A model generated the notes under the pieces. The model was not told the DNA's origin. It searched no databases and saw only the letters and a list, made by a program, of their open reading frames with translations. Of a DNA stretch of 64,000 bases, positions 54,934 to 64,000 are shown one piece after another. Position 1 is the first letter of the stretch. Each line of letters starts with the position of its first letter. The DNA lies in assembly GCA_963698805.1 (NCBI GenBank), contig CAVOSN010000005.1:155553-219552 (forward strand), written 5' to 3'. Origin of the DNA: an uncultured Acidobacteriota bacterium. GTDB lineage: Bacteria > Acidobacteriota > Terriglobia > Terriglobales > Acidobacteriaceae. The position numbers were made by a program, and so were the translations under genes.

Positions 54934-56925
54934 ATGTGCGGGATTAGCGGCGTGGTGAATTGCGGGAGCAGGGAAGTGCTTGCCCGGATGACGCACGTCC
55001 AGAAGCACCGCGGCCCCGACGATTCGGGCCTCTGGGAGCAGCGCTTTCCGGACGGTACTTACGTTGGACTCGGCAGCCGCCGTCTTGCCATCCTCGACCT
55101 CTCGCCCAGTGGCCACATGCCCATGATGAATGCGGACCGCTCGGTCTGCATTACATACAACGGGGAGGTCTACAACTTCCGCGATCTGCGCCGGGAACTC
55201 GAGAGCAAGGGATACCGCTTCGTCTCCGACACCGACACGGAAGTTGTGTTGCACCTCTACGAAGAAGAAGGGCCGGAATGTGTCCGGCGCTTGAATGGGA
55301 TCTTTGCGTTTGCGATCTGTGATACGCGATCGGGTACGCCGGTGGTTTTTGTGGCGCGCGATCACTTTGGGGTGAAGCCTTTTTACTACTGGTACCGCGG
55401 CCGGCAGATGGCGTTCGCGTCGGAGGCGAAGGCTCTGCTGGAGGTTCCCGGAATCACGCCAGAGCTCGACACGCAGTCGCTGCATCAGTACCTGACATTC
55501 CTGTGGGTGCCCGATCCCAAGACGATTTTTCGTGGCATCTTCAAACTGCCCGCTGGGTACTACGCCATTCTTAAGGGTGGGGAGTTGGCGATCACGAAGT
55601 ATTGGGATCTGACCTTCCCTGCGGCTGACCAGCCATATTCACGGTCTGAGGAGGATCTTGCGCAGGAAATTCGGGAACGATTCCAACGCTCGGTGGAAGC
55701 GCAAATGGTTAGCGACGTCCCGATCGGTGCATTCCTGAGTGCGGGACTCGATTCCTCGAGCATCGTCGCGATGATGAGGCGCGCCACCACCCAGCCGGTG
55801 CGCACTTATACGATCACATTTCCGCGCAAGTATCGTGTCGGCGAGACGGCTCTGGACGATCCAGCAGTTGCAGCGCGCCTGGCACAGCATCTGGGCTGCG
55901 AGAACGAGCAGATTGTCGTCGAACCAGATGTTGCAACCCTCTTGCCGCAACTCACCTGGCACATGGATGAGCCAACGGCGGATCCGGCGATCATTCCTGC
56001 TTACCTGGTCTGCCGGGCAGCTCGGAGACAGGCGACTGTTCTGCTTTCTGGCGTTGGCGGAGATGAACTTTTTGCCGGCTACCGCAAGCACGTGGCGCAC
56101 GGTTGGGCGGAGCAGTATGGCAGGCTGCCGGCCTTTGCGCGCAAGCTGTTCGAGCCTGCCATTCTGAAGTTGCCCAGCCTGCGCGGAACACCGATGAAAG
56201 GCGGAGCCCGTCTCGCCAAGAAAATGGCCCGCAGCGCGTCGCTCAGTCCGACTGCGCGGTTCGTGATGAACTGTACCTATCTGGATCAGGAACAGAAGGC
56301 ATCGCTGTATACGGGAGATTTATTGAGCGATCTTTCAAATGTCGAGCCTGCCGAGCGGCACTACGCGGCTTTCGACGAAGTGTCGCATGCTGACTTTCTC
56401 AACCAGATGCTCTATCTCGATACGAAGATATTCATGGTGAGTCTGAACCTTACCTATAACGACAAGATGAGCATGGCTTCGTCGGTGGAGGTGCGCGTTC
56501 CTTTCCTTGATCGCGAGCTGGCGGAGTTCGTGGCATGGAATGTTCCGCCCCATATGAAGCTGCGAGGTGTGCTGCGTCCGACCACCAAGTACATTTTCCG
56601 GAAAGCGATGCACGATGTTCTACCCGCCGAAGTCCTGCGGCAACCGAAGGCAGGATTCGCCGCTCCGGTAGACTATTGGCTGGCGCACGACCTCAAGGAA
56701 ATGGTGGACGATTTGCTCTCCGGCAAGCAGATTCGCGACCGCGGGCTTTTTCAACCTGAAAAATTACGCACTCTGGTGGACGAGCAGCGGCGCGGCACCA
56801 ACGACTGGTCGATGCAAATCTGGCAATTTCTGACGCTCGAATTGTGGATGCGAATGTTTCTCGATGGCGGAGCGCGAAAGTTGGGAGAGGAAACGATCCA
56901 GTCGGAGCAGGCGGCGACCGCATGA
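54934..56925 (+). CDS. Asparagine synthase-like glutamine amidotransferase, paralogue 2
   Basis: MCGISG (Ntn Cys). PP-loop FLSAGLDSSSIVA. 663 aa, intact. Confidence 0.9.
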   Translation: MCGISGVVNCGSREVLARMTHVQKHRGPDDSGLWEQRFPDGTYVGLGSRRLAILDLSPSGHMPMMNADRSVCITYNGEVYNFRDLRRELESKGYRFVSDTDTEVVLHLYEEEGPECVRRLNGIFAFAICDTRSGTPVVFVARDHFGVKPFYYWYRGRQMAFASEAKALLEVPGITPELDTQSLHQYLTFLWVPDPKTIFRGIFKLPAGYYAILKGGELAITKYWDLTFPAADQPYSRSEEDLAQEIRERFQRSVEAQMVSDVPIGAFLSAGLDSSSIVAMMRRATTQPVRTYTITFPRKYRVGETALDDPAVAARLAQHLGCENEQIVVEPDVATLLPQLTWHMDEPTADPAIIPAYLVCRAARRQATVLLSGVGGDELFAGYRKHVAHGWAEQYGRLPAFARKLFEPAILKLPSLRGTPMKGGARLAKKMARSASLSPTARFVMNCTYLDQEQKASLYTGDLLSDLSNVEPAERHYAAFDEVSHADFLNQMLYLDTKIFMVSLNLTYNDKMSMASSVEVRVPFLDRELAEFVAWNVPPHMKLRGVLRPTTKYIFRKAMHDVLPAEVLRQPKAGFAAPVDYWLAHDLKEMVDDLLSGKQIRDRGLFQPEKLRTLVDEQRRGTNDWSMQIWQFLTLELWMRMFLDGGARKLGEETIQSEQAATA

Positions 56926-59140
56926 AGCAGGTTCTGCAACAGCCGAGTACTGGTGAAATTTCGGTGGCGGAGGTCCCGGCGCCCCAGTTGCTGCCCGGCT
57001 GCGTTGCTGGTAAGCATTCGCGCCTCGCTAGTGTCGGCCGGTACTGAGCGCGCTTCTTCGGAGTTCGCCCGCAAGAGTCTCCTTCAGAAAGCGCAAGCCC
57101 GGCCTGATCTGGTGCGAGACGTCGTCAACAAAGTTCGGCGCGACGGATTGCTTTCGGCGGTGCAGGCAGTCCGCAGCCGTCTCGACCAGCCAACTTCGCT
57201 GGGCTACAGCAGCGCCGGCGTCGTGACCGGAGTTGGCGAAGGCGTGACGGACATCGCGGTGGGCGACCGCGTCGCTTGCGCGGGTGCTGGATACGCGGTG
57301 CATGCCGAAGCCGTTTGCGTTCCGCGACTGCTGGTCGCGAAGATTCCCGACGGTGCGTGTATCTTTCGATGAGGCTGCTTTCACCACCGTGGGAGCAGTT
57401 GCCCTGCACGGAATTCGTACGGCTGAAGTGAAACTCGGGGATGCGGTGGCGGTGATCGGACTTGGCCTGGTTGGCCAGTTGACCGTTCAATTGCTGAAGG
57501 CCGCCGGGTGCCGAGTTCTTGGGATCGACATTGCGCCCGACCGAGCCGAACTTGCCGCGCCGTCTCGGGGCGGATGCTGCGCAGTTCTGCGTCGTCCGAG
57601 TTCGCCGATATCTGCGCGCAAAAGACGCATGGCTTCGGGGTGGACGCCGTTCTGATCACGGCCGAGACTCCAGCAGCGAGCCTGTGAATCTGGCGGCAGG
57701 AGTTGCGCGCGATCGCGCCGTGGTTGTCGCGGTGGGCACCGTTGGGATGGAACTGCAGCGGCAGCGTTATTACGAGAAGGAACTCGACTTCCGCGTTTCG
57801 CGTTCCTACGGACCCGGCCGCTACGATGCGGCTTATGAACAAAAAGGGCGCGACTATCCCATCGGTCACGTGCGCTGGACGGAAACGCGGAACATGGAAG
57901 GCTTTCTGCATTTGCTTGCCGAGGGCAAGCTCAACCTGAATCCGCTCATCACGCATCGCTTCACCATTGATCAGGCTAGGGAGGCATACGAACTGATTTC
58001 TGGGGCGAGGCGAGAGCGATCGCTGGGTGTGATCTATTACTTATTCGGAATCCGCCGACTTGAGCCAGCGCGTTAATCTGGTGCCGCTCGAGTCGCAGAA
58101 CGCCGCAAGACATCAAGAGGATCTCAGGATCGGCCTGCTTGGTGCGGGAACTTTTGCAGTTGGCACGCTCATTCCCGCTATTACAACAGGCAGCTAATGC
58201 TGAAATGGTAGTCGTTTGTGCAGCCACTGGCGCGCACAGCCGGCATGCGGCTGAAAAATTCAGGTTTCGCATTTCGAGCACGGATGAGCGTGATGTCCTC
58301 GATAGTCAGGACGTCAACACGGTGGTGATTGCGACGCGTCATCATCTGCATGCAGGCCATGTGCTCGGCGCCTTGGCCGCGCAGAAGAATGTGTTTTGCG
58401 AGAAGCCGCTCTGCCTGAATGAAGAGGAGTTGGCCAAGATCGTACGCGCGCGCGGTTCGTCATCGCATGAGCAGAACCCTCGCCTGATGGTTGGCTTCAA
58501 TCGCCGATTTTCTCCGATGACTTTGCGGATGAAAGAATTTCTGGCAATCAAAGAACCGCTGGCGTTGCATTACAGAGTGAACGCCGGCGCGTTGCCGCCC
58601 GATCACTGGATCAATGATCCGGAGACAGGAGGCGGGCGCATCGTGGGCGAGGTCTGTCATTTCGTCGACTTGTTGTCGTTCCTTGCAGGCGCTTTGCCGA
58701 TCGAGGCTTACGCGCGGACGCTGGCGAATAACGGACTCTACAGCGACGACAACGTGCTGATCTCGCTGTGTTTTGAAAACGGTTCGGAAGGGACGATTCA
58801 TTACCTGGCGAACGCCGATCGCGCATTCTCCAAGGAGCGCATTGAAGTCTTCGGCGGCGGCGCCGCAGCGGTGCTCGAGGATTTCCGCAAGCTGGAGATG
58901 ACGCGCTTCGGAAAGCGATCGACTCTGTCGGCGCGCTGGCGGCAGGACAAGGGGCATCGCGGCGAGTGGCAGGCGTTTGCGAAATGCCTGCGCGAAGGCG
59001 GGCCGGAGCCCATTCCGTTCGAATCGATCGTCAGTTCCACGCTTACGACATTTTGCATTCAGAAGTCGCGTGCCAGCGGGCAGCCCGTTATCGTAGATGT
59101 GCGCGGCTTCATGCAGGCCGCACTCCGAAACGATTCATAA
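56922..59140 (+). pseudogene. Bi-domain oxidoreductase (Zn-ADH/MDR domain + Gfo/Idh/MocA domain) broken by about 7 frame shifts
   Basis: ATG overlaps the upstream stop (ATGA). Conserved sequence hops between frames near 57006, 57353, 57558, 57585, 57667, 58045 and 58180. MDR motifs (LVSAGTE, VAVIGLGLVGQL) are followed by RIGLLGAGTFA and CEKPL of Gfo/Idh/MocA. Confidence 0.75.
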
Positions 59141-59172
59141 AACTAGCTTCTGGGAAGGATGGATCGCAGTTC

Positions 59173-60908
<1,736 letters not shown>

Positions 60909-60913
60909 ACACC

Positions 60914-61990
60914 ATGCCAGAGCACCCCGCCGCCGCGACGGACTCTGTGCCTATACTGACTTTAGTCGAGCGCCTTCCCGGGTTCCGAGTACTAGCCTGG
61001 CATCGTGGAGCCTTGTACGCGTCACGCGGATACGAAGTCATGCGCGGTGATATGAACGGCGGCCGCATGCATTGGCAAAGCGTTGGCCGCTATCGACCTG
61101 CTGCGTGGCGATCGCTGACTTCGAAGAGCAAAATCACCTCTCGTCTGGTGCGCGATGGATTTCACGCTCTGGCGATCACGCCGGGAGGACATTTAATCGG
61201 GGCCGTGCCAGGGGCCATCGTGTCTCTCATGCCCGGCCAGTCGCAATTTGCCGTCGCTCATCGAATCACGCGTGGCATTCGCCCTTTGCACGTGACCGCC
61301 ACCTCGGATGGGCGCGTGTTTTTTGGGGAGTACTTCAGCAACGAACAGCGCGACGAGGTTCACATCTATGCATCACAGGATGAAGGCCAGACCTGGCGGC
61401 TCGCGTACACCTTCCCGAAAGGCGCTGTGCGGCACGTGCATAACATCGTCTATGACCGCGGGGAAAACTGTCTGTGGATTTTCACTGGCGACAACGGCGA
61501 CGAATGCAGAATTCTGCGCGCGTCCTGCGACCTGAAGACGGTCGAGAGCGTGATGGCGGGTAACCAGCAGGCTCGAGCCGTCGCTGCCGTCGTGACCGCC
61601 GAGGGCGTGTACTTCGCGTCCGACACGCCCTTGGAAGCGAATCACGTGTATCGCCTGAGTCGTAACGGGACTCTTGCAACGCTGGCCGATCTGGACAGTT
61701 CGTGCATCGAAGGATGCCTGGTCGGAGAGACGGCAGTTTTCTCCACCATGGTCGAGCCGAGCGCGGCGAATCCGTCGCGGCTTGTGTCCTTGTATGGGGG
61801 CCGGGAACTTGGCTCATGGCGCCGCATCGCGTCTTGGACCAAAGATGCCTGGCCTATGCGGTTCTTTCAATACGGCAACGCGTTCTTGCCCACCGGCGAG
61901 AATCCGACGGAATACCTGGCGGTCACAACGATTGCTGTTCAAGCCGACGATCTTGTGACCTCGATCTTCAGAATGCGGCACGACAAGTAG
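60914..61990 (+). CDS. Hypothetical protein, beta-rich (possible beta-propeller), intact
   Basis: 358-aa ORF from ATG 60914, 5 nt after the upstream stop. Repeated beta-strand-like segments (HIYASQDEGQTWRL, WIFTGDNGDECRIL). No family recognised with confidence. Confidence 0.6.
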   Translation: MPEHPAAATDSVPILTLVERLPGFRVLAWHRGALYASRGYEVMRGDMNGGRMHWQSVGRYRPAAWRSLTSKSKITSRLVRDGFHALAITPGGHLIGAVPGAIVSLMPGQSQFAVAHRITRGIRPLHVTATSDGRVFFGEYFSNEQRDEVHIYASQDEGQTWRLAYTFPKGAVRHVHNIVYDRGENCLWIFTGDNGDECRILRASCDLKTVESVMAGNQQARAVAAVVTAEGVYFASDTPLEANHVYRLSRNGTLATLADLDSSCIEGCLVGETAVFSTMVEPSAANPSRLVSLYGGRELGSWRRIASWTKDAWPMRFFQYGNAFLPTGENPTEYLAVTTIAVQADDLVTSIFRMRHDK

Positions 61991-62040
61991 AGTCGGAACG
62001 GCGTGCTATATTCGCTTCGACTCCAAAACCTGCCGCCCAT

Positions 62041-63021
62041 GTGCCCTTCGTGAAGCGCCTTCGTTATCTACAGCGCGTTTTCAGCGCCTACCTGCTGCCG
62101 GGAAGAAGTCAGTTGACGTTCTGGCACGAGCCACCGCGTGCCAATACGAGAGCGACTTTCGATCAGATCGGCGAATACTACATGGAATTCGCGTCGAAAG
62201 CCGACTACGCCGGGCACTACGATGCTTCTGGCATTCCGATGCTCGACTACCGCGGCCACATCGGTTTGCAATACAACCCGATCGCGATCGCGCAGTACGG
62301 CCTCGGAAATTACAACTTCTTCGTTCAGGAGAAGAGCGAAGAGAGACGAAGAAAGTTCTTGGCTGCAGCCGAATGGCTGGTGGCGAATCTTGCGCAGAAC
62401 GCGCAGGGAGTCTGGGTCTGGAACCATCACTTCGACTGGGAATATCGCGATACGCTCAGGGCACCCTGGTATTCCGGACTTGCCCAGGGACAAGGGATTT
62501 CGCTGCTGGTTCGCGCGCATCACGCGACTCAGGATCCCAAATACGATGTGGCTGCGCGGCGTTCCTTCGAGAGCTTGACGCGCTCCGTGGACGAAGGTGG
62601 CGCCCTTTTCCAGGATGAGCGTGGCGATGTCTGGATCGAAGAGTACCTGGTCGATCCCCCCACGCACATCCTCAATGGAATGATCTGGGCGCTGTGGGGA
62701 GTGCACGACTACGTGCTAGCCACGCAGGATCCATCCGCGAAGGACTTGTTCGACAGAGTTGTGCGTACGCTCGAGCGCAATCTTTCAAAATACGATGCCG
62801 GCTTCTGGTCGTTGTACGAACAGTCGGGAACTCGACTGAGGATGATGGCGAGTCCCTTTTACCATCGCTTGCACGTTGTGCAGCTACGCATCATGCACCA
62901 ACTGACCGGACTGGGAGTTTTTGGCGATTATGCCGATCGATGGGAGCGCTTTGAGCGCAGCCGGATCAAGCGCATCACGGCGCTGGCGTACAAGAGCGCG
63001 TTCAAGCTGTGCTACTACTAA
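62041..63021 (+). CDS. D-glucuronyl C5-epimerase-like protein (C5-epim_C domain)
   Basis: WYSGLAQGQGISLLVRAH, WIEEYLVDPPTHILNGMIWALWGVHD, YDAGFWSLYE and YHRLHVVQL align by eye with conserved blocks of animal heparan-sulfate glucuronyl C5-epimerase. GTG start at 62041 is uncertain. Confidence 0.8.
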   Translation: MPFVKRLRYLQRVFSAYLLPGRSQLTFWHEPPRANTRATFDQIGEYYMEFASKADYAGHYDASGIPMLDYRGHIGLQYNPIAIAQYGLGNYNFFVQEKSEERRRKFLAAAEWLVANLAQNAQGVWVWNHHFDWEYRDTLRAPWYSGLAQGQGISLLVRAHHATQDPKYDVAARRSFESLTRSVDEGGALFQDERGDVWIEEYLVDPPTHILNGMIWALWGVHDYVLATQDPSAKDLFDRVVRTLERNLSKYDAGFWSLYEQSGTRLRMMASPFYHRLHVVQLRIMHQLTGLGVFGDYADRWERFERSRIKRITALAYKSAFKLCYY

Positions 63022-63027
63022 TAACCA

Positions 63028-64000
63028 GTGAAGATTCTCTACGTCTCCCAGTACTTCCCGCCTGAAATGGGTGCGCCCGCCGCGAGGGCCGTGGAACTGG
63101 CGCGGCACTGGGTTCGTGCCGGGCACGACGTCACGGTGCTCACCGGGTTTCCGAATCATCCGACGGGCGTCGTTCCCGAACAGTGGCGGCCGCGGTTGCG
63201 CAATCTCGTTTATCGGGAAGATGTCGAAGGGATTTGCGTGGTACGCACGTGGCTGCTGCCTCTGCCGAATCGTAAGGCGCATGAGCGGATGCTGAACTAC
63301 GGATCGTTCTGTGTCTCAGCGGCGTGGCGCGGAATGGAACTTTCACGTCCGGATGTGGTCATCGCAACGTCGCCGCAACTTCTGGTCGGCCTTTCCGGTT
63401 GGTGGATTTCTTTCTGGAAGCGCGTGCCTTTTATTTTCGAAGTGCGCGATCTTTGGCCGGAGTCCTTGAGTGCGGTCGGTGTTGGATCAGACAACTCGTT
63501 GCTACATCGCGTTCTTGGAGAGATCGCCGGGTTCCTGTATCGCAAAGCCGATCGGATCGTTGTGGTGACTCCCGCTTTCAAGGATCATTTGACTAAGCAT
63601 TGGCAGTTGCCCGGCGAGAGAATCTCAGTCGTCGAAAACGGAGTAGAAAGTTCTCTGTTTACCCCCGAAGCCGCAGAGGCTGCGCTTAAAGAGCGACTCG
63701 GCCTGAAGGAAAAATTCGTTGCGGCTTACATCGGAACCATGGGCATGGCGCATGGGCTTGACACACTGATCGAAGCGGCTAGCAGGTTGAAAGAGAGTGA
63801 TCCGGATATCAGTTTTCTGCTGGTGGGCGAGGGCGCTGACAAGGAACGAGTCCAGGCAATCGTGCGAGAGCGGCAACTGTCAAACATCACTTTCGTGAAC
63901 CAGCAGGCGCGGGAGAAAATTCCTGCATTCATCGGGACGTCCGATGTCTGCCTGGTGCTCTTGAAGAAAACCGAACTCTTCAAGACCGTGATTCCGACCA
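63028..64000 (+). CDS. Family 4 glycosyltransferase (WcaI-like), 3' end outside window
   Basis: My own translation from GTG 63028: VKILYVSQYFPPEMGAPAARAVELARHW...FEVRDLWPES...GTMGMAHGLDTLIEAA. Frame is open to the window edge. Confidence 0.85.
   Translation, partial: MKILYVSQYFPPEMGAPAARAVELARHWVRAGHDVTVLTGFPNHPTGVVPEQWRPRLRNLVYREDVEGICVVRTWLLPLPNRKAHERMLNYGSFCVSAAWRGMELSRPDVVIATSPQLLVGLSGWWISFWKRVPFIFEVRDLWPESLSAVGVGSDNSLLHRVLGEIAGFLYRKADRIVVVTPAFKDHLTKHWQLPGERISVVENGVESSLFTPEAAEAALKERLGLKEKFVAAYIGTMGMAHGLDTLIEAASRLKESDPDISFLLVGEGADKERVQAIVRERQLSNITFVNQQAREKIPAFIGTSDVCLVLLKKTELFKTVIPT

Follow-up and report, generated by a model that had tools for sequence, protein, structure and literature searches.

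Introduction

Among the closest described systems is animal GLCE, the heparan-sulfate glucuronyl C5-epimerase, a protein of 617 amino acids (aa) that has beta-hairpin dimerisation and beta-sandwich domains (PMC13308652) besides its helical barrel, as well as a membrane anchor and lumenal targeting. Its catalytic residues are E499, Y500, N510, Y560 and Y578 in human numbering, as PMC13308652 lists them, citing Debarnot 2019. Prokaryotic candidates of the same family, PF06662 (C5-epim_C), were catalogued in 2011, including one from an acidobacterium, and were sited among glycosyltransferases (Raedts 2011, PMC3068255). According to PMC13308652, which cites Raedts 2013, the one bacterial PF06662 enzyme with demonstrated activity to date is RED65_08024 of Bermanella marisrubri. 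In addition, Agl32 of Halobacterium salinarum is a small enzyme consisting of the helical domain only, which converts glucuronic acid (GlcA) to iduronic acid (IdoA) on a short glycan, not on a long polymer (PMC12624080, PMC13308652). Here we analysed a gene pair at positions 60914-63021 of a 64,000-nucleotide (nt) stretch of DNA from an uncultured soil bacterium of the Acidobacteriota (contig CAVOSN010000005.1), hereafter the window. The second gene of the pair encodes a 326-aa epimerase homologue, and the first encodes a 358-aa protein whose predicted fold is a beta-propeller.

The explanation that we consider best, and rather probable, is that the epimerase works with the GT4 glycosyltransferase encoded directly after it, and that the propeller is the constant half of a transferase-linked tailoring module. 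The epimerase itself is a fairly ordinary new member of a known enzyme family, and the propeller represents an accessory family, not described before, that goes with transferases of glycan tailoring.

A short epimerase of the GLCE family

The initial annotation of this DNA took the 326-aa protein for a homologue of GLCE, and a HMMER comparison with C5-epim_C bore this out. The match had an E-value of 8.1e-46 and a score of 156.3 bits, well above the curated cut-off of 23.3, and covered profile positions 2-187 of 188; by this sequence comparison, the match is far beyond chance. The motif blocks PWYSGLAQGQGISLLVRA, WIEEY, LNGM, YDAG and YHRLHVVQL were all found in the translation. When PDB sequences were searched with HMMER, human and zebrafish GLCE were the sole significant relatives (chains 6HZZ, 6I01 and 4PW2; E 2e-22 to 8e-21). 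The AlphaFold2 model, for which 58 homologues were used as input, was a helical (alpha/alpha) barrel with a predicted local distance difference test score (pLDDT) of 85.6. The first eight Foldseek matches of this model were all GLCE chains (E ~2e-12, root-mean-square deviation 2.3-2.4 Å, ~213 columns, 27-29% identity), and barrels of the cellobiose-2-epimerase type (AGE-type) came next, far behind GLCE.

The alignment with GLCE showed that all five catalytic residues are kept. Specifically, E201, Y202, N212, Y259 and Y274 of the window epimerase were aligned by HMMER (6HZZ) with E499, Y500, N510, Y560 and Y578 of GLCE, where the human residue number equals the 6HZZ chain index plus 90, as verified via the Y578F difference between 6HZZ and 6I01. 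The same five positions were invariant across the 58 homologues (alignment A3). Agl32, which is a functional analogue for the short prokaryotic form, differs in this respect: none of the catalytic residues of GLCE is found in it, and its mechanism is believed to be a different one (PMC13308652). Note that a second, weak stretch aligned residues 62-98 with GLCE 194-229 with a domain E-value of 26, which is not significant alone; by our own reading of this weak alignment (E 26), the stretch spans the position of human Y222.

On the other hand, the architecture of the animal enzyme was not found in the window epimerase. The alignment spans the helical domain only, with no beta-hairpin dimerisation domain, beta-sandwich or membrane anchor, and no sulfation machinery was present at the window locus. 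Those parts of the architecture define the animal subfamily, not the Pfam family, and the protein is, judged from its sequence, a true GLCE/PF06662 family member in a minimal, catalytic-domain-only form. A length of 326 aa is also that of most of its homologues. A longer open reading frame (ORF) starting at 61987 was ruled out, as the codon there is GTA, which is no start codon. No membrane helix or signal-like N-terminus was found in the epimerase by 19-residue Kyte-Doolittle averaging (top mean 1.03), and no hydrophobic helix or signal-like N-terminus was found in the propeller protein by the same measure (top mean 1.47), so that both proteins are probably cytoplasmic. The epimerase resembles the Bermanella enzyme and the 2011 candidates in being a prokaryotic PF06662 protein among glycosyltransferases of a surface-polysaccharide locus (PMC3068255). 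However, many of the 2011 candidates have a signal peptide (PMC3068255), whereas the clade of the window epimerase, known here from sequence and compared with them by description, has none and has a shorter N-terminus.

The initial annotation had also regarded bacterial members of this family as rare, which did not hold. A word-indexed search matched 4443 clusters of epimerase homologues at 90% identity (E 0.001 or better), and prokaryotic candidates were already catalogued in 2011 (PMC3068255). Per genome, C5-epim_C was sporadic: of 201 genomes in an even sample of the phylum 5 had it, and of 14 control genomes 1. The initial annotation was right about a tested enzyme from Bermanella (Raedts 2013, cited in PMC13308652). 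A second, distantly related C5-epim_C protein is encoded in the same genome as a paralogue (366 aa, 30% identical; L015:9507-10607, contig C28, 311162-311689 region). It adjoins genes for a GDSL-like lipase and a TPR protein, in no obvious glycan locus and with no propeller.

The neighbouring gene encodes a predicted Asp-box propeller

The initial annotation had recognised no named family in the upstream neighbour, and our profile scans likewise gave no Pfam or NCBIfam match. The family is nevertheless large, with at least 2823 homologues in the indexed database. An exhaustive search of representatives clustered at 50% identity gave 1717 clusters, and 299 of them reached E 1e-30 or better. The AlphaFold2 model (pLDDT 90.6, predicted template modelling score 0.89) was all-beta with about 27 strands, which may be read as roughly seven blades. 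Foldseek matched the model to generic propellers only (TM-score 0.45-0.61, ~10% identity), and no enzyme family was prominent; the top 50 fold matches were generic WD40, YWTD, Kelch-type or designed propellers. Supply of the GLCE beta domains in trans by this neighbour was ruled out, since the model is a propeller and no GLCE chain was among its top 50 PDB fold matches.

A canonical Asp-box, SQDEGQTW (SxDxGxTW), occupies residues 154-161, and two more Asp-box-like turns were seen in the family consensus. None of the curated BNR/sialidase profiles matched the propeller above its cut-off, the BNR_2 match scoring 13.3 bits (E 0.052) where 31.4 would be required. Likewise, 70 family members that were scanned gave only weak matches to BNR, BNR_2 and Sortilin-Vps10 (19-32 of 70), below curated cut-offs, and the family profile touched only the Asp-box motifs of GH74 enzymes among PDB sequences (best E 0.005). 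The protein thus shares a predicted propeller fold and one canonical Asp-box with the described BNR/Asp-box propellers (sialidase clan, GH74 xyloglucanases and Sortilin-Vps10). It differs from them in that its matches stay below cut-offs, it has no signal peptide, its family is found in biosynthetic loci adjoining or fused to transferases, and no known catalytic constellation could be mapped on it.

Conservation within the family was concentrated in polar and charged residues. Across 70 representatives at ~30% identity, ~29 positions were near-invariant, including R77, R80, R123, E139, Y140, N143, R173, H174, H176 and D181, as well as D193, E197, Q218, R221, D237, N243, E281 and D311. We placed the conserved positions relative to the predicted strands, assuming that the Asp-boxes lie between blade strands 3 and 4 as in sialidases. 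Placed in this way, the conserved residues would lie at the starts of the innermost strands and in the strand 2-3 loops of successive blades, on one face round the propeller axis, and in the model this points to a specific pocket, which may be catalytic or ligand-binding. For the sialidase catalytic set (Arg triad, Tyr/Glu nucleophile pair and Asp acid/base), several near-invariant Arg, an E139-Y140 pair and several Asp are at most candidates by residue type, and no alignment with a sialidase was obtained.

Both genes appear to be maintained. Compared with a relative that is 87-92% identical, the ratio of nonsynonymous to synonymous substitution rates (dN/dS) was 0.14 for the propeller gene and 0.17 for the epimerase gene. 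The two genes are both intact and under purifying selection.

Association of the propeller and the epimerase with their neighbours

We examined the surroundings of the two genes by locus searches seeded with the narrow alignments A1 and A6. In 80 species-level Terriglobia genomes, the order carbamoyltransferase, propeller, epimerase, GT4, Wza and WecA was nearly universal. The gene directly upstream of the propeller was a carbamoyltransferase in 69 of the 80 loci and a DDAH/arginine-dihydrolase-like gene in 7, and the epimerase followed the propeller in at least 75. The DDAH-like replacement was seen at L028, L042, L046, L050, L052, L073 and L090 (e.g., L073:6127-6978), and a DUF2252 gene was present further upstream of the DDAH-like gene in the three loci scanned for it (L028, L042 and L072).

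The initial annotation had suggested that the neighbour may serve the epimerase as a partner or as a subunit that binds the substrate, and as a dedicated subunit it might replace the missing beta domains in trans. The constant order and adjacency of the two genes in at least 75 of the Terriglobia loci, including the 7 without carbamoyltransferase, would suit such a role, as would the shortness of the epimerase, which lacks the beta-hairpin and beta-sandwich of GLCE (the Foldseek alignments cover ~213 columns of the helical domain). However, co-occurrence argued against it. In the 201-genome sample, the propeller was found in 10 genomes and C5-epim_C in 5, with both in only 3, so that 7 of the 10 propeller-bearing genomes had no C5-epim_C and 2 of the 5 genomes with C5-epim_C had no propeller. 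One locus (L006) retains the epimerase-GT4 pair without the propeller: its order is GT2, AsnB, oxidoreductase, epimerase and GT4, with the carbamoyltransferase and the propeller missing together. Furthermore, the neighbour's fold is a propeller with no GLCE-type sandwich.

Beyond the Terriglobia, 58 genomes carry a propeller of a second subfamily; they belong to Blastocatellia/Pyrinomonadaceae, Vicinamibacterales, Nitrospirales and Latescibacteria. In 53 of these 58 loci a carbamoyltransferase precedes the propeller, often with a methyltransferase before that, whereas C5-epim_C was present in none of the 58, which again argues against a dedicated epimerase subunit. The trio of methyltransferase, carbamoyltransferase and propeller was seen in 35 of the 58 loci (within L099-L156) as well as in L009, L011 and L013, and it is kept in Blastocatellia/Pyrinomonadaceae. 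The trio of L013 adjoins a gene with SIS and cytidylyltransferase-like domains.

By their spacing, the four genes fell into two pairs. Note that start sites were set by a fixed rule in this analysis, so that the gaps are approximate. The median gap between carbamoyltransferase and propeller was 14 nt in Terriglobia (10 nt or less in 30 of 68) and 6 nt in the second set (10 nt or less in 29 of 56), and that between epimerase and GT4 in Terriglobia was 6 nt (10 nt or less in 52 of 72). The gap between propeller and epimerase was loose, with a median of 66 nt in Terriglobia and 10 nt or less in only 4 of 75. In the window, the propeller ORF starts with an ATG 5 nt past the TAA of the preceding carbamoyltransferase gene (60906-60908), the epimerase ORF starts with a GTG 50 nt past the TAG of the propeller gene (61988-61990), and GT4 begins 6 nt past the epimerase stop. 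The pattern of gaps therefore indicates [carbamoyltransferase + propeller] and [epimerase + GT4] as the natural units.

Gene fusions were found on the propeller side. Six long propeller representatives comprised three fusions to GT4, two to a sulfotransferase and one with an unknown N-terminus; with two further sulfotransferase-propeller fusions, the latter amount to four, and a word-indexed search from a fusion protein gave 13 matches. The sulfotransferase and the propeller also occur as separate adjacent or overlapping genes. No propeller-epimerase ("Rosetta stone") fusion was present among the six long representatives checked. As side observations, the propeller fusions at L010:8845-10962 and in representative P0332 carry 350-500 N-terminal residues without a Pfam match, possibly a further unknown enzyme type.

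Taken together, these data make a dedicated partnership of propeller and epimerase quite improbable: the pairing is confined to Terriglobia, and the propeller family is linked more widely and more closely to the gene that precedes it, be it a carbamoyltransferase, a sulfotransferase or GT4, in some cases as a fusion. The propeller is probably not an epimerase subunit, and across genomes it travels with the carbamoyltransferase.

The slot filled by the epimerase is occupied differently elsewhere. In three Nitrospirales/Latescibacteria loci (L153-L155), the order oxidoreductase, carbamoyltransferase, propeller, heparinase II/III-like gene and GT4 equals that of the window with the epimerase slot refilled. 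For L153 (e.g., L153:4-10436) the order was confirmed by Pfam, with an extra 472-aa ORF of no known family before the carbamoyltransferase and, after the propeller, ~1.5 kb containing only short ORFs (<200 aa) ahead of the heparinase II/III-like gene. These cytoplasmic heparinase II/III-like proteins (Hepar_II_III_N/C) are, as the epimerase is, tightly coupled to the following GT4, whereas their family and fold are unrelated to C5-epim_C. This suggests that the two unrelated kinds of protein do equivalent jobs in these loci. A heparinase II/III-like gene followed by GT4 was also seen after one sulfotransferase-propeller fusion, and the heparinase slot was present at L096:6394-11378 as well.

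Proposed roles of the two proteins

From what is shown above on families, folds, conserved residues, gene order, gene spacing and fusions, we infer a substrate, a cellular location and a role for the propeller as follows. The epimerase would reside in the cytoplasm and reversibly take up and return the proton at C5 of a hexuronic acid within a growing lipid-linked glycan, turning a D-uronate into its L-epimer, e.g., GlcA into IdoA. The epimerase and GT4 would act as a unit, in which GT4 could fix the epimerised form and draw the reversible reaction forward by chain extension. The propeller would form the constant half of a tailoring module with two parts, binding or preparing the acidic sugar acceptor for a transferase. 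The variable half of this module would be the group-transfer enzyme encoded upstream or fused to the propeller. In this and most other genomes that enzyme is the carbamoyltransferase, whereas a sulfotransferase, GT4 or DDAH-like enzyme is found elsewhere. In addition, the two AsnB-like amidotransferases of the locus suggest uronamide formation.

The propeller might instead be an enzyme that prepares the acceptor itself, e.g., a metal-dependent hydrolase acting on an N-acetyl or ester group, after which the transferase installs a new group; the preparatory step could for instance deprotect an amino sugar. By analogy, such an order would follow the logic of the animal N-deacetylase/N-sulfotransferase acting before GLCE. 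The RHxH-x4-D stretch (R173, H174, H176 and D181), which the family keeps together with many near-invariant acidic and basic residues at ~30% identity, is consistent with catalysis, and so are the sialidase-like Asp-box topology, the fusions to sulfotransferases, and the variety of group-transfer enzymes (carbamoyl-, sulfo-, methyl-, amidino- and glycosyl-) found beside one constant propeller. However, there was no detectable similarity to a known hydrolase family, no known deacetylase has such a fold, and the conserved residues could equally serve binding. We regard a catalytic propeller as unlikely; catalysis by the propeller is the sole point on which this reading departs from the explanation that we consider best.

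Several points weigh against the explanation that we prefer, in which the epimerase works with GT4 and the propeller with a transferase. Only one bacterial PF06662 enzyme has been assayed. The adjacency of propeller and epimerase in at least 75 of 80 Terriglobia loci, which persists in the 7 with the carbamoyltransferase replaced, is nearly universal, and a lineage-specific functional link between the two may therefore exist. The conserved His, Asp, Glu and Arg of the propeller would, as far as residue types tell, suit an enzyme and a binding module equally. The placement in a single pocket relies on residue positions relative to predicted strands, and start codons in the gap analysis were set by rule. 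Finally, if the breaks in the carbamoyltransferase gene described below are real, the module may be inoperative in this strain.

A wider version of the preferred explanation can be put forward only tentatively, and we consider it rather unlikely. In this version, the propeller would be the common acceptor-handling part of a modular tailoring system, to which exchangeable transferases (carbamoyl-, sulfo-, amidino-type, methyl- and glycosyl-) are joined by adjacency or fusion, acting before an interchangeable uronyl-C5 slot that is coupled to GT4. This slot would be filled by C5-epim_C or by a heparinase II/III-like protein, and the propeller would either bind the acceptor or catalyse its deprotection.

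The surrounding locus and its broken genes

The genes of the locus are arranged in the order GalE, AsnB-like amidotransferase, GT2, AsnB-like amidotransferase, bi-domain oxidoreductase, NodU-like carbamoyltransferase, propeller, C5-epimerase and GT4, and GalE was identified by its equivalog. This arrangement makes up an operon for surface polysaccharide that is conserved in Terriglobia (Acidobacteriota). Our literature searches turned up no description of this cluster or of a carbamoyltransferase-propeller pair. In relatives, GT4 is followed by genes for a Wza-like exporter and a WecA-like initiating transferase; the contig stops ~2.4 kb beyond the window end, so that these two are not confirmable for this genome. 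The features analysed are collected in Table 1. Both ORFs reported in the initial annotation were present and intact on the forward strand, and the two genes before them were broken, as it had described.

Table 1. Positions of the analysed features in the window
Feature	Position	Strand	Basis and remarks
Bi-domain oxidoreductase (zinc-ADH-like + Gfo/Idh/MocA), broken	56922..59140	+	ADH_N, ADH_zinc_N and GFO_IDH_MocA on pieces
NodU/CmcH-type carbamoyltransferase, broken	59173..60908	+	Carbam_trans_N and Carbam_trans_C on fragments
Asp-box beta-propeller of an unnamed family, 358 aa	60914..61990	+	AlphaFold2 fold and Asp-box; probably cytoplasmic
Short-form GLCE-type uronyl C5-epimerase homologue, 326 aa	62041..63021	+	PF06662 match; helical barrel only; probably cytoplasmic
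WcaI-like GT4 glycosyltransferase	63028..63999 (cut by window end)	+	Glyco_trans_4_4 and Glycos_transf_1; NCBIfam WcaI below cut-off

The breaks were located by comparison with intact relatives. In a close relative (83% identical) that carries this cluster, both genes are unbroken, the oxidoreductase at 739 aa and the carbamoyltransferase at 577 aa (intact orthologues in L003). Relative to L017, the oxidoreductase gene contains 7 single-base insertions or deletions (indels), at 57005, 57361, 57561, 57581, 57669, 58036 and 58182, and the carbamoyltransferase gene contains 6, at 59883, 60161, 60323, 60352, 60574 and 60659. Compared with two intact relatives, exactly 13 frame-breaking single-base indels were found, all within 57005-60659 (3.65 kb), and the flanking 6.4 kb of aligned coding sequence had no frame-breaking indel and one compensated pair.

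If the 13 frameshifts were real, the operon could be decaying and non-functional, with the two intact genes as leftovers, and the clustering of the indels in 3.65 kb next to 6.4 kb that has no frame-breaking indel would be in line with this. However, the broken genes have no in-frame stops inside their segments and no larger deletions, and with the indels removed the dN/dS of both was 0.08, as low as that of the intact neighbours (0.06-0.17). Furthermore, other long-read metagenome-assembled genomes of the same project split other genes of the cluster, namely the carbamoyltransferase in L018, the oxidoreductase in L019 and GT4 in L003 and L016. Decay of the operon is thus highly improbable. 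Because the dN/dS without indels resembles that of the intact neighbours, the upstream breaks are probably assembly artefacts or very recent.

Implications

Enzymatic formation of IdoA is a bottleneck in heparin biomanufacture, so that the PF06662 family is of practical interest, and the clade described here is a well-populated, easily expressed and domain-minimal addition to it. The more useful result is the neighbour, a large family unnamed in Pfam and NCBIfam, which in at least three phyla is systematically found beside transferases that tailor glycans, or fused to them. The shared GT4-coupled slot leads to testable hypotheses for two common types of gene in polysaccharide loci that are called "hypothetical" or misleadingly named. 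If the modular reading is true, these loci would hold a bacterial cytoplasmic counterpart of the animal order in which a neighbouring sugar is modified and the uronate is then epimerised, and the numerous puzzling heparinase II/III-like genes of biosynthetic loci would encode C5-epimerases.

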